NCBI RefSeq assembly: GCF_036780765.1
Contig: NZ_DAIQCG010000007.1
Location: 55,217-119,216, forward strand
DNA: 64,000 nucleotides
Source of the DNA: Epilithonimonas sp.
GTDB lineage: Bacteria > Bacteroidota > Bacteroidia > Flavobacteriales > Weeksellaceae
Direction: 5' to 3'
Shown: in pieces, positions 2,167-58,196 of the stretch
How the letters are laid out: every line of letters starts with the position of its first letter
Position numbering within the stretch: position 1 is the stretch's first letter
Notes under the pieces: generated by a model
Seen by the model: the letters and a program-made list of their open reading frames with translations, nothing else
What the model was told of the DNA's origin: nothing
Databases searched by the model: none
Translations under genes and position numbers: made by a program

Positions 2167-3564
2167 TTAAACTGATTTCATATTATCTCCATCACGGAAA
2201 TTCAATCTTCTAAAAACCAAACCGGAAATAATCGTGAGAAAACCAACGACTAAAAATGTATATCGAAATGCGTTGTGAACCTCGTTATTGATGAATTTGG
2301 TGTCACCTTCGAAAATCTTCAGAACAATCAATCCAAATGCAATCCCGAATCCCATCGCCAACTGCTGATTAACAGCAACCAAAGAATTTCCGCTGCTGGT
2401 CTGATAATTTCGTAAATCCGCTATGGAAATAGTATTCATTGATGTGAATTGTATCGAATTGAAAAATCCTAACAACAGCAACAATGGCACAAACCAATAA
2501 ATGGAATTGTGAACATCAGGGATCGCCAAACAACAAATGATTAAACCAATGATAAAGGTATTGACCATCAATGTGGAACGATAACCAAATCTGTCTAAAA
2601 TCTGGATAACTGCTGATTTTCCGAACATAGAAGTCAATGCCATTGGCGCAACAATCCAACCTGAAGTAAACGCCGATTGTCCATAAGCTATCTGTATCAT
2701 CAAAGGAACTAATAAAGGAATTGAACTAATTCCTAATCTTGTCGCCAAATTCCCTAAAACACCTACTCTAAAGGTGCGAACCTGAAAAAGATTGAGTGGG
2801 AAAATTGGATTATTATCTTTTTTGGCGTGTTTGTAATAAAAATACAACATCAAGAATCCCAATAAAAACACCAACAAAACGGGTGTCATATTCTTAGCAT
2901 TTCCGAATAATTCTAAAGACGTAGAAAGTAATAAAGACGCTAAACCGAAAATGAGAAATCCTTTCAAATCGAAGTCGATGATTGGAGATTTGTAATTCGG
3001 CATATATTTGATACTCAAAACTATTCCTAGAATTCCGATTGGTAAATTAATAAGAAAAATCCAGTGCCACGATAAATAATCGACAATATAACCACCAACC
3101 AAAGGTCCTAAAACCGGACCAATCAAAGCAGGAATAATGGCGTAGTTCATTGCTTTGAGCAATTCGTTTTTGTCAAATGCTTTAATCAATGCGAGTTTTC
3201 CAACTGGTGTCATCAAACTTCCACCAACACCTTGAACAACTCTGGCAATAACCAACTCTGTGAGATTATGAGCCATCGAACAAAGCAATGAACCCAGCGA
3301 AAAGAATATTAATGAGAAAATAAAAACTTTCTTAGTTCCGAATTTGTCCGCCAAAAATCCGCTAACAGGCATAAACAATGCTAAAGTCAATACATAACTA
3401 ATGATTGCATTCTGCATATTAAGCGGAGATTCTCCCAATTCTTTGGCAATTGACGGCAAAGATGTATTGAGAATTGTAGAATCCAACATCTGCATAAATA
3501 TGGCAGTTGCCAATATAAACGGAAGGATTTTTTTGACCGAATCGGTTGTGAGAGTTTCGCTCAT
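2167..3564 (-). CDS. MFS transporter, DHA2 (EmrB/QacA-like, 14-TMS) family
   Basis: 465-aa strongly hydrophobic ORF with an MFS N-terminal signature region (LDSTILNTSLPSIAKEL, GFLADKFGTKKV). Confidence 0.8.
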   Translation of the reverse strand: MSETLTTDSVKKILPFILATAIFMQMLDSTILNTSLPSIAKELGESPLNMQNAIISYVLTLALFMPVSGFLADKFGTKKVFIFSLIFFSLGSLLCSMAHNLTELVIARVVQGVGGSLMTPVGKLALIKAFDKNELLKAMNYAIIPALIGPVLGPLVGGYIVDYLSWHWIFLINLPIGILGIVLSIKYMPNYKSPIIDFDLKGFLIFGLASLLLSTSLELFGNAKNMTPVLLVFLLGFLMLYFYYKHAKKDNNPIFPLNLFQVRTFRVGVLGNLATRLGISSIPLLVPLMIQIAYGQSAFTSGWIVAPMALTSMFGKSAVIQILDRFGYRSTLMVNTFIIGLIICCLAIPDVHNSIYWFVPLLLLLGFFNSIQFTSMNTISIADLRNYQTSSGNSLVAVNQQLAMGFGIAFGLIVLKIFEGDTKFINNEVHNAFRYTFLVVGFLTIISGLVFRRLNFRDGDNMKSV

Positions 3565-3581
3565 TTTTTGAAATTAATATT

Positions 3582-3605
3582 AAAAAAATCCGCTTTTATG
3601 CGGAT
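3582..3605 (-). terminator. Intrinsic terminator after aguA
   Basis: Stem atccgc/gcggat (3588-3593 / 3600-3605). It is followed on the minus strand by a T-run (A-run 3582-3588 on plus). Confidence 0.6.
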
Positions 3606-3612
3606 TATATTT

Positions 3613-4671
3613 TTAAACCAAAGGTTCTTGTTGACTTAGACAATGGAAACTTCCCAATCCCCAAATAATATCGGTAGAATCTATACCAACCACTTCTCTG
3701 TCAGGAAAACATTTTTGAATGATTTCTAAAGCCAATTCATCTTTATCACATCTGTAAGTCGGTACAATGACTGACTTATTGGCGATATAAAAATTAGCAT
3801 AAGAAGCAGGCAATCTTTGTCCATCACAGTAAACTGGGTCTGGCATTGGCAATTGGATGATATTTAATTTTTCGCCTTTTAGCAAAGTCATTTCTTCCAG
3901 TTGACGAAGGTTGGTTTGAAGAATTTCGTAGTTATCATCTTCAGTATTATCTTCGATAACTGTCAGAACTGTATTTTCATTGACGAATCTAATGGTATCA
4001 TCCACGTGACCGTCTGTATCATCGCCTACAATTCCGTCATCGACCCAAAGAACCTGTTTTTGTCCGTAATATTTTTTCAAGAACTCTTCCACTTCTTCCT
4101 GAGAAAGATGCGGATTTCTGTTTTCATTAAGTAAACAAGATTTGGAAGTCAAAACTGTTCCAGCACCGTTAAATTCAACGGAACCTCCTTCCATAATAAT
4201 TCCAGGATAAAGAACAGGCAATCCTTTTTCTTCAGCAATCTTAGTTGGAATTACATCATCCAATTCGAATGGCGGATATTTTCCTCCCCACGCATTGAAA
4301 CCCCAATCCACAATGATTTTCTTTGGTTCTTCTCCATTTTTATTCACTAAAAAAGCGGGTCCGTGGTCTCTGCACCAAGCATCATTGGTTTCATTAAAAT
4401 AAAACTCGACTTTGGAAATATCTGCGCCTGCTTTGGAAATATGTTCCATTGCGAAAGCTTGCATTTCTTGGTCTTTTACATTGATGCAAACGAACTCACC
4501 TTTTGTTAATTCTGCAATAAATTTAGCATAAGCCGGATAAATCAAATCGATTCTTTCCGGCCAAGATTCTTCTTTGTGAGGCCAAGACAACCAAGTAGCT
4601 TCGTGTTCTTCCCATTCTGCTGGGAAAACATATCCATTTTCTAACGGATTAAAATCTTTATCTATAATCAT
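3613..4671 (-). CDS. aguA: Agmatine deiminase
   Basis: 352 aa. Has the PAD_porph-family layout, with a C-terminal GLGSFHCLSQQEP block containing the catalytic Cys. Start overlaps the aguB stop (ATGA at 4671). Confidence 0.85.
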   Translation of the reverse strand: MIIDKDFNPLENGYVFPAEWEEHEATWLSWPHKEESWPERIDLIYPAYAKFIAELTKGEFVCINVKDQEMQAFAMEHISKAGADISKVEFYFNETNDAWCRDHGPAFLVNKNGEEPKKIIVDWGFNAWGGKYPPFELDDVIPTKIAEEKGLPVLYPGIIMEGGSVEFNGAGTVLTSKSCLLNENRNPHLSQEEVEEFLKKYYGQKQVLWVDDGIVGDDTDGHVDDTIRFVNENTVLTVIEDNTEDDNYEILQTNLRQLEEMTLLKGEKLNIIQLPMPDPVYCDGQRLPASYANFYIANKSVIVPTYRCDKDELALEIIQKCFPDREVVGIDSTDIIWGLGSFHCLSQQEPLV

Positions 4672-46583: not shown

Positions 46584-46595
46584 GAATTATTCTTG

Positions 46596-47558
46596 ATGAA
46601 ACGTTTTCCTCTTTTGGTAACATTGATAGTCGTTTTGGCGATTATTGCGTTTTTCATCAATCTTAATATTGGTTTTGCAAAACTGAATTTTTCTGATTTT
46701 TTAAATTCAGAATCAGATAATTTTCAGATTGCAGGATTTAGGATTAACCGCGCTTTAGCAATGCTTTTAGCTGGAATTGCAATCCCGACAAGTGGATTTC
46801 TTTTGCAGGAATATTTTAAGAATCCTTTGGCTGGTCCAGATGTTTTGGGAATCACTTCGGTTTCTAGTTTGTTTGTCGCATTTTATATTTTCTTTTCGCA
46901 AAATATTGTTATTCCTGATTTTTTTCAAAATAGCTTTATCAGTTTATCATCAATCATTGGAAGTATTGTTTTGATGATGATTTTGCTGTTATTTTCAAAC
47001 CGATTTAGGGATAAAAGTTTCATCATTATTTTCGGATTTTTGATTTCGGCTTTAGCTGGAGCTGTTGTTTCGTTTCTTCAGTTTTATGTGGAAAGTCAAA
47101 GTTTGAAAAATTATATGCTTTGGACTTTTGGAGCGAATAATCAAGCAAGTTTAATTCAAATTTCGATTCTTACAGTTTTAATCATTATTGGATTAATTTT
47201 TACTTTCAAATCTATAAAACCTCTAATTGGAAATGCTCTGGGAAGCGCTTATGCACAGAGTTTTGGAATCAGTCAATCGAAACTGAAAATCAGCATTATT
47301 GTAGCTTCTTCCCTACTTTCTGCTTCGGTTACGGCTTTTTTAGGGCCGATTTTATTTATTGGAGTTGTTGTTCCCCATTTTTGCAGAATGATTTGGAATC
47401 CTGCACAACTTTGGCATCAATGGATTCTGAACATGATTTTGGGTGTGTTTATATTGCAGGTTTTCTCGATTATTTCGGAACTGAGTCAATTTCCTATTAA
47501 TATCATCACAACATTCTTTGGAATTCCCGTGATATTGTTGATGTTGATGAAAAGGTAA
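46596..47558 (+). CDS. FecCD-family iron-complex ABC transporter permease
   Basis: About 320 aa, polytopic, with FecCD-like blocks (RINRALAMLLAGIAIPTSGFLLQ, GPDVLGI). The track start at 46593 is TTG; an ATG follows at 46596. Confidence 0.8.
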   Translation: MKRFPLLVTLIVVLAIIAFFINLNIGFAKLNFSDFLNSESDNFQIAGFRINRALAMLLAGIAIPTSGFLLQEYFKNPLAGPDVLGITSVSSLFVAFYIFFSQNIVIPDFFQNSFISLSSIIGSIVLMMILLLFSNRFRDKSFIIIFGFLISALAGAVVSFLQFYVESQSLKNYMLWTFGANNQASLIQISILTVLIIIGLIFTFKSIKPLIGNALGSAYAQSFGISQSKLKISIIVASSLLSASVTAFLGPILFIGVVVPHFCRMIWNPAQLWHQWILNMILGVFILQVFSIISELSQFPINIITTFFGIPVILLMLMKR

Positions 47559-47564
47559 TAAGTA

Positions 47565-47879
47565 ATGAAAAATATCAAAACATATAAAGGATTAATAATT
47601 ATAAATATTTTCTTATTTATTTTAAGTTTTTCTTTTATGGAATATTCTAATATATTTCGTCTTAATCAAGAAAAGCATTGGATTTATTCTACAGCTCATA
47701 ATTGGTATTTATTTTTTGCATTTCCAATATCAATGATTGGTTCTTTAGTATTAAGTATAATCACACTCATTAAAATTCAAAAACAAAAATACATTTGGTT
47801 ATTTTTAAGTTTAATTCCAATTATAATATTTCTTTTATTACCAAAGATTTTGATAATTTTAAATCTAAGAAATCCATAA
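47565..47879 (+). CDS. Small hydrophobic membrane protein, unknown family
   Basis: 104 aa with three predicted TM stretches. Extremely AT-rich and wedged between the permease and ATPase genes (gaps 6 and 7 nt). Confidence 0.45.
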   Translation: MKNIKTYKGLIIINIFLFILSFSFMEYSNIFRLNQEKHWIYSTAHNWYLFFAFPISMIGSLVLSIITLIKIQKQKYIWLFLSLIPIIIFLLLPKILIILNLRNP

Positions 47880-47886
47880 TCATAAA

Positions 47887-48831
47887 ATGAGTTTCCTTAA
47901 AATTAGTAATACAACAATCGGCTATTCAAATCCTTTGGTTTCGGAGATTGATTCGTCTTTGGAATTAGGCGAAGTTTGTTTGTTGATGGGAAATAATGGA
48001 ATCGGGAAAACGACTTTAATTAAAACTATTCTTGGACAAAACAAGCTTTTAAAAGGTGAAATTTCTATTAACGGAAAATCAATTAAAAAGCTGGATTCAA
48101 ATGAAATAGCATCTCAAATTGCCATTGTTTTTTCTAAAGCAGAAATTCCTGATAATTATACGGTCACAGATTTAATTTCGCTCGGTAAATACATTCATTA
48201 TCCTTATTATTTTAAATTGAATGAAACTGACAAACAGGAAGTTTCTGCTATTATAAACAAACTCAATCTATCAGAATATCAAAACAAAAAACTAACCGAA
48301 TTATCTGACGGAAATCTTCAAAAAGCTTTTATAGGAAGGGCTTTGGCTCAGAATTCTCCTTTTATTATTCTGGATGAACCAACCACACATTTGGATGAAG
48401 AAAATAAATTGATGATTCTCTCACTTCTAAGAAATCTCGCAAAATCAGAAAACAAACTGATTCTTTTTTCTTCTCACGATTGGCGATTAGCAAAAGAATT
48501 TGCCGATAAAATCTGGTGGATAAAGGACAAAAAACTCATCAGCGGAATTTCTGAAGAAGTCATTCTCAACAATCCCCAATTGATTATGCCAAAGATTTTA
48601 GAATTTAATCAAACCTTTCACGCTCCAGAAATTGATGCACCGAAATTGGAAAAAGAAATGATGTTTTCTTATCTCCAAAAAAACTTCTATCAAGATTTAC
48701 GAAAAATCAAATTGACGTTTAAAAATGATTTTTGGGAACTAAATTCGGAGGATTTTTATGATAATTGTCATAATTTATTCGAAATTAAACAGTCTCTGCA
48801 AACATTGATTAAAACAAGCAATTCTAACTAA
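47887..48831 (+). CDS. ABC transporter ATP-binding protein with a ~90-aa C-terminal extension
   Basis: Walker A GNNGIGKTT, signature LSDGNLQK, Walker B FIILDEPTTHLD. Confidence 0.85.
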   Translation: MSFLKISNTTIGYSNPLVSEIDSSLELGEVCLLMGNNGIGKTTLIKTILGQNKLLKGEISINGKSIKKLDSNEIASQIAIVFSKAEIPDNYTVTDLISLGKYIHYPYYFKLNETDKQEVSAIINKLNLSEYQNKKLTELSDGNLQKAFIGRALAQNSPFIILDEPTTHLDEENKLMILSLLRNLAKSENKLILFSSHDWRLAKEFADKIWWIKDKKLISGISEEVILNNPQLIMPKILEFNQTFHAPEIDAPKLEKEMMFSYLQKNFYQDLRKIKLTFKNDFWELNSEDFYDNCHNLFEIKQSLQTLIKTSNSN

Positions 48832-53473: not shown

Positions 53474-53830
53474 ATGAGCTTCAAAGAAGATAATTTGATT
53501 CAGAATAAGACATTTGAATTTGCATTGAGTATAATTAAATTTTATACGATTTGTAAATCTCAGAATGAATACATTCTTTCAAAGCAGATTCTTCGTTGCG
53601 GAACTTCGATTGGTGCAAATGTAGAAGAAGCAATTGCAGCACAATCAAAGAAAGATTTTATCTCAAAACTTTCTATTGCAAATAAGGAAGCGAGAGAAAC
53701 AAAATATTGGTTGAAGCTTTATCAATCTTCAAATCTTGTACAGATTGATATTGATTCTTATTTAAAAGAAATTGAGAGCATCATTAATATTCTAACTAAA
53801 ATCATCAAAACTTCATCTGAAAATTTATAA
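53474..53830 (+). CDS. Four-helix-bundle protein (23S rRNA intervening-sequence protein family), second copy
   Basis: 118 aa. QILRCGTSIGANVEEAIAAQSKKDF and ANKEARETKYWL are signature blocks. Confidence 0.85.
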   Translation: MSFKEDNLIQNKTFEFALSIIKFYTICKSQNEYILSKQILRCGTSIGANVEEAIAAQSKKDFISKLSIANKEARETKYWLKLYQSSNLVQIDIDSYLKEIESIINILTKIIKTSSENL

Positions 53831-55670: not shown

Positions 55671-55693
55671 ATCATCAATTTGATATAATAAAA

Positions 55694-55726
55694 AATCCCA
55701 TTTCAAAGTTTGAAATGGGATTTTAG
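55694..55726 (+). terminator. Intrinsic terminator of the fad operon
   Basis: Long stem aatcccatttcaa/ttgaaatgggatt followed by T-rich sequence. Confidence 0.7.
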
Positions 55727-55749
55727 TTTTTAAAAATATCAATAGGAAT

Positions 55750-55858
55750 GGGCTTTAGCCCATTTAACAATGCAATAATTATTGGCTTTAGCCTAAATTT
55801 ATTTAAGTTTTGGCTAAAGCCAATTTTGATTTTTACCTTTACATCGGGCTGAAGCCCG
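55750..55858. repeat. Array of four GGCT-N2-AGCC mini-palindromes
   Basis: gggctttagccc (55750), ggctttagcc (55784), ggctaaagcc (55812) and cgggctgaagcccg (55845), spaced about 28-35 nt apart. Confidence 0.7.
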
Positions 55859-55865
55859 ACGCTAT

Positions 55866-56087
55866 TTATAAATTAAAGAACTCCCTTTGTTTATCTTTTG
55901 AAATATTTGTGGTTTTTCCAGATTCTGCTTGTTCAATAGATTTATCAATCTTCTTATAAAAATCTTCTTCAGAAAGCAAAGTTTCATCTTTTTCACCAAT
56001 TTCAAAACGAACTTTAAGTTCCTCTAAAAGAGATTTGAGCAAAGATTTTTGCTTTTCGTCTTTTGGGTAAATTGTTATACTTTCCAT
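55866..56087 (-). CDS. DUF2683-like small protein (putative orphan antitoxin)
   Basis: 73 aa. MESITIYPKDEKQKSLLKSLLEELKVRFE matches the pattern M..I.V.P.N.EQ...LK.FL.ALK..FE that I associate with DUF2683. No toxin ORF follows. Confidence 0.5.
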   Translation of the reverse strand: MESITIYPKDEKQKSLLKSLLEELKVRFEIGEKDETLLSEEDFYKKIDKSIEQAESGKTTNISKDKQREFFNL

Positions 56088-56172
56088 AATTTTAAACTAT
56101 TAAACAAAAATATAATGATTTTCTGATTTAATTTTTTGAGATTGATTTTTTTTCAATTTGATTTAAATAATA

Positions 56173-56197
56173 AACCCTCTGATTTTTTCGGAGGGTT
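56173..56197. terminator. Hairpin directly after the stop of the three-gene operon
   Basis: Stem aaccctc/gagggtt with T-rich flanks on both strands. Confidence 0.5.
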
Positions 56198-56198
56198 T

Positions 56199-56627
56199 TT
56201 AGTTTAAATAGCACTCAGATATTTTAGGGAGTTCAGCTATTTTTGGATTATTAAAGAAAAATTTTTCTCGACTCGGATGTAATCTTTGATAATTAGAAAA
56301 GTCGGAAACTTTTTCTTTTGTATGGATTAGATACATTGTATTCCTCCTTTGTTTATCATAGCTAACACCTACTGTATTAGTTGTATCAATTTCTGCTTTA
56401 TGGGTTTTTATTTCGTAAAAACTTACATATCCAATCTCAGTTAAAATTGTTTCTTCACTCATAGTTAGAAATTTTTTTCCTATTGATTCTGCCAACTCAA
56501 AAAATTCATCTTCTAACTTTCTAAAAAAAGTAAGGTCTAAGTTTTTTTCGCTTAAAATGAAACCTTTATTTCCAGTTTCAAACAAAACGTAGAAATAGCT
56601 TTTGCCGTCGAATTTGTAGTTTGTCAT
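56199..56627 (-). CDS. Hypothetical protein C of the AT-rich three-gene operon
   Basis: 142-aa ORF, 9 nt downstream of protein B. No family recognised. Confidence 0.55.
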   Translation of the reverse strand: MTNYKFDGKSYFYVLFETGNKGFILSEKNLDLTFFRKLEDEFFELAESIGKKFLTMSEETILTEIGYVSFYEIKTHKAEIDTTNTVGVSYDKQRRNTMYLIHTKEKVSDFSNYQRLHPSREKFFFNNPKIAELPKISECYLN

Positions 56628-56636
56628 TATAAAATA

Positions 56637-57266
56637 TTATATTATTTGATCAAAACAAAATTTGGTCAAATCATTAACTCCTCTAAATAAAATTGTAGGA
56701 CTGGCCCCATTTTCATTATCTTCTTTTAGAATGAAGTGTTTTTTTCCAATATATAAATTATCAAATCCATATTCTTCAATAATAACTTTGATAAAACTTG
56801 AATCTATTGTATGCGGAAATAATGATTTTGGGAAATTTATATTAGAATAAGATGGTAAAGGTGTAATAGGAAATGTAAGTGGATTATGATTTAAATAATC
56901 GTAATTAATAATGAGCACTTCAGAAATAGCATATAGTATATTTTCAAAAGCTTCCTCCTTAGATTTTCCCTCGGTTATACAGCCTCTTAATTCAGGACAC
57001 CATATACTGTAATTACCATTATAATTTGAGTTCAGAATTTCAATAGAAAAAGTTATGTCTAAATCCCTAAAAGGAACTTTTATATCTTTTATTGTTTGTA
57101 TCTCTCCATCATCCTCAAAGCGACAAATTTGTTCAATGTTATAATTTAGATTCTTTTCTAAAAATTTTTCATATACAATTATATCTTCTTCAACTAGATT
57201 AATTAACTCAATTTTCGGAAAATTTCTTTGTAGGTTTCTAAGCCCTCTTTTCACTATAATATTCAT
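56637..57266 (-). CDS. Protein B: HicB-N-terminal-like domain fused to a HicA-like C-terminal domain
   Basis: 209 aa. FSIEILNSNYNGNYSIWCPELRGCITEGKSKEEAFENILYAISEVL fits the UPF0150/HicB antitoxin pattern. FIKVIIEEYGFDNLYIGKKHFILKED...PTILFRGVNDLTKFCFDQII fits the HicA/YcfA spacing. Confidence 0.6.
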   Translation of the reverse strand: MNIIVKRGLRNLQRNFPKIELINLVEEDIIVYEKFLEKNLNYNIEQICRFEDDGEIQTIKDIKVPFRDLDITFSIEILNSNYNGNYSIWCPELRGCITEGKSKEEAFENILYAISEVLIINYDYLNHNPLTFPITPLPSYSNINFPKSLFPHTIDSSFIKVIIEEYGFDNLYIGKKHFILKEDNENGASPTILFRGVNDLTKFCFDQII

Positions 57267-57276
57267 AATTAGATAT

Positions 57277-57675
57277 TTATAAATTGTTTAAAGACCATTT
57301 TAAAAGTAAATGAGGAATGTAAATTTGATTTATAATTCGTTGTTGATTCTCTAAATCAGTTTTTATAAATTCATCTTCTAATTCAATTTGGATATACATT
57401 AACAATAAAGAAATTGAACTTTTAGCTTCTAATAAAGTGTCAAAATTTCTATCAACAGTAGTAAATTCTAACAGCCCAGAATTTATATTAGAATACCAAT
57501 TGAATTTATTTTTACTAAGCAAAATTGTTTCTTTATTCCAAACACCAACATTTTCTTGTAAATGTCCACTTTGTTTTTTCATTAATTTGTAACAAACTTC
57601 CAAAGAAATTTTTAAAACATCGTTCTTTGATATTGTACTATATTTTTGATTAATTAAATTTTCTAGCTCTTCCAT
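57277..57675 (-). CDS. Hypothetical protein A of the AT-rich three-gene operon
   Basis: 132 aa from the ATG at 57675 (the track start at 57681 is TTG). No family recognised. A TAttTTTG -7 box lies at 57694-57701. Confidence 0.55.
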   Translation of the reverse strand: MEELENLINQKYSTISKNDVLKISLEVCYKLMKKQSGHLQENVGVWNKETILLSKNKFNWYSNINSGLLEFTTVDRNFDTLLEAKSSISLLLMYIQIELEDEFIKTDLENQQRIINQIYIPHLLLKWSLNNL

Positions 57676-57779
57676 ACGCAATTTAGTTTTTCACAAAAAT
57701 ATAAAGAGGAATTCAATAATTATTACGGGAATCCGTATTTATTCGCAACTATCAATTCTATGACCTCAAACAATAATAT

Positions 57780-58082
57780 TCAAATCTTAATACTCAACTC
57801 CAACCGTCCACCAAAACCAAGTTCAACAATTTTTTGAAGTGTAGAGATTCTCGCTTCTTTCAGGTTATTCTCAATTTTAGAAATATAAGATTTAGTCGTT
57901 CCTAATTTTTCAGCCAACTGTTCTTGCGTCATTCCCAATTATAAACGTGTATCGTGAATGAGCGCCCCAATATTAAAATTTTCGTAACCAGATTCTAGTT
58001 CATCACGTTCTTTGGTTCCACGCTTACCAAAATTTTTATTTTTGAACTCATCAAGAGTTGTTAGATTATTTACTATCTTCAA
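57780..58082 (-). pseudogene. XRE/HigA-like HTH gene with an in-frame TAA
   Basis: Minus-strand reading gives LKIVNNLTTLDEFKNKNFGKRGTKERDELESGYENFNIGALIHDTRL*LGMTQEQLAEKLGTTKSYISKIENNLKEARISTLQKIVELGFGGRLELSIKI. The stop codon is at 57939-57941, and the start is TTG only. Confidence 0.65.
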
Positions 58083-58125
58083 ATTTTAATCTGATTTTAC
58101 TCTCACTATTTCTACATTATAAATA

Positions 58126-58158
58126 TAAAAAAGTTTCACTAAAGTGAAACAAAAAAAA
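58126..58158 (-). terminator. Hairpin after the DUF763 gene
   Basis: Perfect gtttcac-N4-gtgaaac (58133-58150) with A/T runs on both sides. Confidence 0.55.
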
Positions 58159-58196
58159 TAGAAAGTTCTTGATTTACAAAAATAAAATACTGAAAA

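Follow-up and report, generated by a model that had tools for sequence, protein, structure and literature searches.

The 64,000-nucleotide (nt) stretch of Epilithonimonas sp. DNA analysed here (assembly GCF_036780765.1, contig NZ_DAIQCG010000007.1, positions 55,217 to 119,216 of the forward strand; hereafter the window) contains a compact cluster of three small genes, A, B and C, the second of which encodes a protein that probably carries a HicB antitoxin domain and a HicA-like toxin domain in one chain. The three open reading frames (ORFs) are located on the minus strand, with gene A at 57277-57675 (132 amino acids (aa) when counted from the ATG, an alternative TTG start two codons 5' of it being possible), gene B at 56637-57266 (209 aa) and gene C at 56199-56627 (142 aa). 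They are separated by gaps of 10 nt between A and B (57267-57276) and 9 nt between B and C (56628-56636). A Bacteroidetes-type -7 box, TATTTTTG, was read directly from the minus strand at 57694-57701, 19 nt 5' of the ATG of gene A; it matches TAnnTTTG and is the candidate promoter of an A-B-C transcript. TAnnTTTG occurs 109 times in the window, where 86 ± 8 occurrences would be expected. Since such matches are frequent in DNA this rich in AT, the position of the box rather than its presence is suggestive, and the motif alone is weak evidence. A scan for sigma-70 promoters yielded fewer sites than in shuffled sequences and was uninformative, sigma-70 being the wrong promoter type for Bacteroidetes. 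Directly 3' of the stop codon of gene C, an intrinsic-terminator-like hairpin was located at 56172-56198 on the minus strand. Its folding energy was -12.1 kcal/mol (z = -3.5), which was equalled in none of 200 shuffles, and a U-rich tail lies next to it. The GC contents of A, B and C were 22.6%, 26.0% and 28.4%, respectively, compared with 40.8% for fadE, 43.8% for DUF763 and 34.5% for the window. Moreover, the segment at 55671-58196, referred to as the islet, was the lowest-GC 2.5-kb stretch of the window (26.4%; scan mean 34.5%, standard deviation 2.1%). The gene coordinates and gaps, the promoter-type box, the hairpin and the deviating composition reported in a preliminary description of this DNA were all reproduced.

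The architecture of protein B was evaluated via AlphaFold2 (AF2) modelling and profile comparison. The protein comprises an N-terminal extension (residues 1-55, 57102-57266), a HicB N-terminal (UPF0150, RNase-H-like) antitoxin domain (residues 56-124, 56895-57101), a proline-rich inter-domain linker (residues 125-155, 56802-56894) and a divergent HicA-like domain with the fold of a double-stranded RNA-binding domain (dsRBD; residues 156-209, 56640-56801), all encoded on the minus strand. With an alignment of 20 family sequences, the model had a predicted local distance difference test (pLDDT) score of 90.6 and a predicted template modelling (pTM) score of 0.90. The model was confident only with this alignment; five close sequences gave a pLDDT of 43 and an unusable model. 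The extension was modelled as a helix (3-15), a strand (20-23) and a second helix (26-48) with pLDDT values of 82-98. It belongs to no known family and showed no hhalign similarity to HicA or HicB, in agreement with the earlier remark that unrecognised sequence precedes the domains of B. The linker was without regular secondary structure, had the lowest model confidence (block means 66-84) and was poorly conserved across the family alignment.

The HicB pattern, which had been noted in the preliminary description at residues ~72-120, was confirmed. These residues (72-120) matched the PHROGs family phrog_497, 'HicB-like', with an E-value of 1.6e-5. In hhalign comparisons, the HicB domain of B was aligned with 30 curated Class 2 HicB sequences over 48 columns at a probability of 98.5% (E = 4e-15), and with 12 HicB sequences adjoining Pfam-verified HicA at 98.8%. 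In the AF2 model, the domain has strands at 56-66, 69-78, 85-89 and 97-100, followed by a helix at 103-124. Local Foldseek alignments placed this middle domain on TTHA0281 (2dsy_B) with 1.8 Å over 49 columns and on the N-domain of B. pseudomallei HicB (6g1c_V) with 2.2 Å over 51 columns and 27% identity; with the multidomain query, neither global E-value was significant. The Pfam model HicB_lk_antitox (PF15919) scored full-length B at 15.4 bits and the domain by itself at 18.3 bits, both below the gathering threshold of 27 bits, and matched only 4 of the 20 members of the B family. Within the family, C90 and G95 were invariant, and P91, E92, A113 and E116 were kept in at least 90% of the 20 members. 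No helix-turn-helix (HTH) or ribbon-helix-helix motif was detected in B by Pfam in either the whole protein or the isolated domain.

The last ~55 residues of B had been suggested to have a HicA-like fold, and this suggestion held. The AF2 model shows an alpha-beta-beta-beta-alpha topology (helix 157-166, strands 170-173, 177-181 and 191-193, helix 199-208) with block pLDDT values of 84-94. The domain was compared by hhalign with three sets of HicA and HicB profiles. The first was built from Pfam-verified cyanobacterial hicBA loci, the second also contained three HicA sequences from the PDB, and the third consisted of 31 HicA and 30 HicB curated by Gerdes, taken from entries listed in Table S1 of that work (Gerdes, 2024, mBio 15:e03293-23, PMC10865869). 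The probability for the C-terminal domain against HicA increased from 5% to 37% and then to 89% with the growing diversity of the HicA profile. Against the 31 curated HicA, it was 89.4% (E = 2.1e-6, score 32.5), and the 51 aligned columns spanned the whole domain. In a column-shuffle null with the final HicA profile, the mean score was 7.8 and the maximum 15.7, so that the observed score of 32.5 was reached in 0 of 150 shuffles; another null gave 0 of 200. A reversed-sequence control reached a score of only 7.5, and E-values of 0.12-0.69 were obtained in ten cross-controls. Furthermore, the whole B family was aligned with artificial fusions of Class 2 HicB and HicA in a single collinear match over 126 columns (99.0%, E = 2.7e-18).

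The Foldseek search with the whole B model returned no match at E ≤ 0.001 in the PDB or BFVD, only the local superpositions on HicB being informative, and the search of PDB sequences with the B profile returned no HicA and only chance-level matches. The HicA domain of B appears to be too divergent for Pfam detection. In HicA toxins, the catalytic histidine lies in a G-S-H loop. H177 of B (codon CAC, 56736-56738, minus strand) is aligned with this histidine and is kept in 16 of the 20 family members, with asparagine in the other 4. The glycine of the motif corresponds to G174, which is shifted by one position (GKKH) and kept in 15 of the 20. The curated genuine HicA PIU56918 has QGKH, a GSH variant like the GKKH of B, and the HicA structure 4c26 has alanine at the position of the catalytic histidine (GSAHH).

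The distribution of the B family was explored in large sequence collections. The family proved very rare: homologues of B formed four clusters with 61-94% identity in 5.8 billion proteins. Among 1.8 billion representatives, 16 proteins, most of similar length, were found at E < 1e-10, and the matches beyond them were ordinary short UPF0150/HicB proteins with E-values of 1e-4 to 1e-3. A core-motif scan of 185,579 species-representative genomes recovered canonical short HicB genes alone, without any full-length relative of B. The family persists to ~25% identity with conserved core motifs. In the loci of relatives, denoted by L-numbers, one member of the family stands alone (L038) and another is in an unrelated context (L035), with no homologue of A, C or the HTH gene of the islet nearby in either. 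Searches of phage genomes found no copies of A, B or C, those of IMG/VR contigs found no B or C, and the only plasmid match of B was a canonical Anabaena HicB; hence, a phage or plasmid origin was not supported. The L035 member, P0022 (387 aa, 2746-3909), has ~170 residues of MORN repeats ahead of a complete B architecture, and its gene lies in a series of small lipoprotein-like genes that share one strand and belong to no known family. The neighbours in L035 were rejected as paralogues of B. In an exhaustive search, P0039 and giant repeat proteins were likewise rejected as relatives, these matches being repeat- or composition-driven artefacts.

Comparison with relatives gave ratios of nonsynonymous to synonymous substitution rates (dN/dS) of 0.14-0.37 for A, 0.19-0.57 for B and 0.12-0.30 for C. 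These values denote purifying selection and indicate that A, B and C are real genes. The reading frames of B were intact in all homologues. Among the window, L005 and L041, the synonymous divergence (dS) was 0.04-0.15 for A and B, ~0.26 for C and 0.41-0.79 for the adjacent core gene fadE. The low dS of A and B relative to fadE indicated that the A+B block was exchanged horizontally and recently. The pattern, for which L001 was compared as well, would imply that the breakpoint of this exchange was in or near C.

The slot between DUF763 and fadE was compared in Epilithonimonas hominis, Chryseobacterium sp. NEB161 and metagenomic Epilithonimonas-like contigs. An XRE-family HTH gene was always first and C always last, and the interior differed. 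The cargo was A and B in the window, L005, L041 and L042, the L042 contig ending after A and the start of B. L001 contained an upstream Fic module, then B without A and then C, the HTH gene being 12 nt from B. Other loci carried proteins of 164 and 201 aa (L009, L010), 267 and 93 aa (L007, L008) or 398 and 197 aa (L011 to L013). Across genomes, at least six unrelated genes were observed directly upstream of C. A Gp49/HigB-like toxin gene was located ahead of the HTH gene in L007, L009 and L042. In L011-L013, a DUF2683-ParE pair followed C, in which the DUF2683 gene overlaps the downstream ParE_toxin/YoeB_toxin gene. The presence of Gp49-HTH, DUF2683-ParE and Fic modules in the same slot indicated that it collects modules of the toxin-antitoxin (TA) type. 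According to the occurrence of B alone, of B and C without A, of A and C without B, and of C after other cargo, the three genes re-assort freely. From these gene orders, C appears to be the constant anchor and B a self-contained mobile gene, and the locus can be read as a short TA-type islet of variable content that lies between DUF763 and fadE and is built as XRE-HTH … cargo … C. A and C would be co-transcribed neighbours here, interchangeable islet genes rather than obligate partners of B. Neither an integrase nor recognisable att repeats could be seen at this islet of ~2.5 kb. The alternative cargo genes (L007 4888-5976, L009 4865-5978, L011 3286-5079) were mosaics of shuffled domains. The modules recombined among them included an ~80-aa module (…VKDFMK..GYISVH…IIKGFF…), a C-terminal tail (NWLxDAxGTNDPxTMNDVYWNLD) and an N-terminal ExoX-like_C motif. 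In the contig of the closest relative, L005, DUF763 was split into ORFs of 52 and 343 aa (1177-2388), a split due to a frameshift, to pseudogene formation or to an error in the assembly.

The preliminary description had suggested that B could be a self-inhibited effector released by its partners A and C. In a three-component defence system of this kind, A and C would detect infection and thereby set B free. The tight packing of the genes behind one promoter-type box, with one shared terminator, is compatible with such a system. So are the common recent transfer history of A and B (a window-L005 dS of ~0.04 in each case) and the retention of the trio in the window, L005 and L041, with A and the beginning of B in L042. 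However, B and C occur without A in L001, A and C without B in L040, B-family members alone in L035 and L038, and C with other cargo in L007, L009, L011 and L044. The trio in its order was found only in a few very close Epilithonimonas strains (window, L005, L041), and it had no PADLOC match. A functional three-gene system was therefore unsupported, and we regard it as improbable.

A and C remain orphan families. Neither protein had a Pfam, NCBIfam, PADLOC or PHROGs match, and profile searches of the PDB gave only chance-level matches for both. Homologues of A formed only 5 clusters, all Epilithonimonas-like. Those of C formed 16 clusters with 78-94% identity, distant ones with 45-46% identity occurred in L040 and L044, and a metagenome scan for C returned two loci only. 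A different division of labour, in which B is only an antitoxin and C is the toxin of a non-canonical two-gene TA, was also weighed; the HicA-like domain would then be a dead relic or an adaptor. In the window, L001, L005 and L041, B immediately precedes C and only 9 nt separate the two, C is conserved under purifying selection with many invariant charged residues, and the NCBI name of the E. hominis orthologue of B is 'HicB family antitoxin'. On the other side, at least five other unrelated genes take the place upstream of C, namely A (L040) and genes for proteins of 201 aa (L009), 93 aa (L007), 197 aa (L011) and 209 aa (L044). An upstream gene that is so freely replaceable is unlike a cognate antitoxin. 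Moreover, the relatives of B in L035 and L038 have no homologue of C nearby, and C showed no similarity to any toxin family in Pfam, NCBIfam, PADLOC and PDB profile searches. This arrangement was considered unlikely.

Two of the distant loci deserve a short description. In L040 (3643-4634), a 70%-identical homologue of A is followed by a 45%-identical homologue of C (148 aa) without B, and the locus is at a different chromosomal site, adjoining another acyl-CoA dehydrogenase. In L044 (518-1595), a distant homologue of C (148 aa) follows the unrelated 209-aa gene, which was rejected as a relative of A or B. A small ORF further upstream in L044 has a C-terminus that is RelE/ParE-like by eye, with no significant match. 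A shared fold among C, the ~80-aa shuffled cargo module and the HicA-like domain of B, which a weak BLAST match (E = 0.066) had suggested, was unsupported by hhalign (E = 0.035-0.19).

The possibility that the islet is a cluster of orphan immunity genes against polymorphic toxins had been named as the main alternative in the preliminary description. B would then be an immunity protein that reuses HicB-like and dsRBD-like folds. The small, AT-rich, mosaic and strain-variable ORFs with domain shuffling resemble an immunity array, the relative of B in L035 carries MORN repeats and has small lipoprotein-like neighbours, and no separate cognate toxin was present. Nevertheless, A, B, C and the alternative cargo had no Imm, SUKH or other immunity-family match in Pfam, and no toxin, Rhs, type VI or type IX secretion system remnants or trafficking domains were found in any locus examined. 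The collinear HicB-HicA order and the conserved histidine at the catalytic position look like a TA module, and the neighbouring modules are of the TA type (Gp49-HTH, DUF2683-ParE, Fic). The immunity cluster was left without direct support, and its probability is judged to be low, although A and C may still be of this kind.

The islet has lost parts in this strain. The XRE-family HTH gene, the first gene of the islet (57780-58082, minus strand), is a pseudogene here; HTH_3 matched its distal half (E = 3e-13). It has TTG in place of the ATG start, and a GAA-to-TAA change at 57939-57941 truncates it at codon 48. In the DNA alignment, its orthologues were intact with 100-103 aa. If the HTH protein is the repressor of the islet, A-B-C may be de-repressed in this strain. 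Downstream of C, a DUF2683 gene encoding an antitoxin-like protein of 73 aa was located at 55866-56087 on the minus strand (Pfam DUF2683, E = 2e-9). Its DNA was ~99% identical to that of L011, and the homology stopped exactly at its stop codon. The ParE/YoeB-family partner gene is missing, and ~170 nt with four small GGCTnnAGCC-type palindromes are found instead. This non-coding stretch (55671-55865) also contains a perfect 15-bp hairpin (55692-55724), which can terminate both fadE and the DUF2683 gene. TAnnTTTG-like boxes were matched ahead of the HTH gene (58177-58184) and of the DUF2683 gene (56105-56112).

With a broken HTH neighbour, a deleted ParE gene and Pfam models that fail on B, the islet is eroding in this strain, and B might itself be a fusion that has decayed and lost its function, a pseudo-TA adrift in AT-rich junk DNA. 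The dN/dS of B, its intact frames in all homologues, the persistence of the family to ~25% identity and the pLDDT of 90.6 speak against such decay, which we consider highly improbable.

We therefore favour, with moderate confidence, the reading of B as a single-chain HicB-HicA toxin-antitoxin in a small AT-rich, horizontally exchanged islet, with A and C not being obligate partners. This reading is based on the domain homologies, the collinear HicB-to-HicA order, the confident compact model, the purifying selection and the self-contained nature of the gene. In the resting state, the HicB domain would cover the HicA domain in cis. A phage protein binding to the N-terminal/HicB part, or cleavage of the exposed linker, may be the trigger, and the N-terminal module is a possible sensor. 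The freed putative RNase domain would then cut RNA and arrest the cell, with abortive infection or addiction as the outcome. By analogy, this mechanism would follow the logic of CapRelSJ46 and EzeT, in line with the proposal of Gerdes on fused HicBA. The upstream XRE-HTH protein, whose gene is broken here, may supply in trans the DNA binding that is absent from a HicB without a DNA-binding domain (DBD).

Several observations weigh against the single-chain TA reading. Pfam HicA_toxin (PF07927) gave no match at E ≤ 10 for B, its isolated domain or the 20 family members. The top 50 Foldseek matches of the full-length B model contained no HicA chain, and dsRBD proteins were among its matches only weakly (E of ~1). 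The altered GSH and VP.H motifs (GKKH, and TILFRG in the clade of B), together with the asparagine in 4 of the 20 members, mean that the HicA-like domain could be catalytically dead. The cis-inhibitory HicB-HicA interface is deduced only from the pTM of 0.90. PADLOC-DB v2 had no match for A, B, C and DUF2683, and the HTH fragment matched generic HTH-type models only. No large defence island surrounds the locus. Finally, no experimental study of toxicity, RNase activity or phage response was found in the literature for any fused HicBA.

A wider proposal is that XRE-HTH … cargo … C forms a cassette-exchange platform, in which C is a common downstream effector or stabiliser for interchangeable sensor/toxin modules and the single-chain HicBA is one such module. 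We hold this proposal to be quite unlikely; if it were true, the islet would be a type of modular defence locus that has yet to be reported from Flavobacteriia.

Two features elsewhere in the window were recorded. A second low-GC patch (~47.3-48.3 kb) belongs to an ABC-transporter operon (46593-48831) encoding a permease, a 104-aa membrane protein and an ATPase. It is probably ordinary, its low GC being an effect of membrane-protein composition. Between a thiolase gene and fadE, at 53474-53830 on the plus strand, a gene encodes a 23S rRNA intervening-sequence protein, a bAvd-like four-helix bundle (Pfam E = 7e-24), of which relatives have 1-2 more copies elsewhere in the neighbourhood.

The position of B among known systems was examined by comparison with the published classification. 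In canonical Class 2 hicBA, where a small HicB lacking a DBD is followed by HicA and for which the reference locus L015 was verified by Pfam (HicA E = 4e-17, HicB E = 1e-10), the domain order is the same and the same HicB core motif (CPEL.GC.t.G.s..EA..N) is present as in B. However, Class 2 toxin and antitoxin are two separate proteins, of which the antitoxin can be degraded independently, whereas they are covalently linked in B. To call such a fusion unprecedented would be too strong, since fused hicBA and hicAB already form Classes 11 to 13 (PMC10865869). Class 11 is HicA-HicB-DBD, Class 12 is a small HicB-HicA, and Class 13 consists of a large helical N-terminal region and HicA. In an example of Class 12, HicB covers residues 12-60 and HicA residues 74-127 (PMC10865869). 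B resembles Class 12 in being a single ORF in which a HicB RNase-H-like domain without a DBD precedes a HicA dsRBD, and in the same proposed logic of a toxin inhibited in cis. Nevertheless, B has 209 aa, including ~55 additional residues at its N-terminus and a linker of ~30 aa, so that its size is not close to the sum of a Class 2 HicB and a Class 2 HicA. The divergence of its HicA domain also puts it beyond detection by Pfam. Class 12 genes are monocistronic, whereas B appears to lie inside a three-gene A-B-C transcript, as judged from the gaps, the box and the terminator, although the distant relative in L038 is solitary. The B family was not found in the portion of Table S1 (PMC10865869) that was searched. 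As far as domain order can tell, B fits the Class 12 architecture and differs in its N-terminal extension, long linker, extreme HicA divergence and three-gene setting. The B family would hence extend the fused HicBA class with an extra N-terminal module. Moreover, a HicA divergence beyond standard hidden Markov models, together with an E. hominis orthologue named only as a HicB antitoxin, suggests that fused or cryptic HicA are under-counted in annotation.

A CapRel-like self-inhibition, possibly directed against phages, was proposed for fused HicBA, with CapRel and EzeT cited as analogues (PMC10865869). CapRelSJ46, a fused toxSAS and phage capsid sensor (PMC9712102), and EzeT, a fused zeta toxin, resemble B in that toxin and neutraliser are in one chain and auto-inhibition is relieved. 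They differ from it in their unrelated folds and in their chemistry, which is tRNA pyrophosphorylation and UNAG (UDP-N-acetylglucosamine) kinase activity, respectively, as opposed to a putative RNase; furthermore, both were tested experimentally, whereas fused HicBA are predicted. Fused TA proteins such as CapRel are current models of direct sensing of phage proteins. B is compact (209 aa) and self-contained with a confident model, which makes it a convenient candidate for asking whether single-chain HicBA are self-inhibited RNases. The slot itself resembles variable defence/TA hotspots with conserved genes on both sides, TA clustering in defence islands having been described (PMC10865869), in its fixed position between DUF763 and fadE, its conserved frame genes HTH and C, its strain-specific mosaic cargo, its low GC and a cargo dS far below that of the core. 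The differences are the size of only ~2.5 kb, no sign of an integrase or of recognisable att repeats and a cargo without catalogued defence matches. The islet may serve as a clean small case in which cargo is exchanged at one constant chromosomal position in Epilithonimonas and Chryseobacterium.

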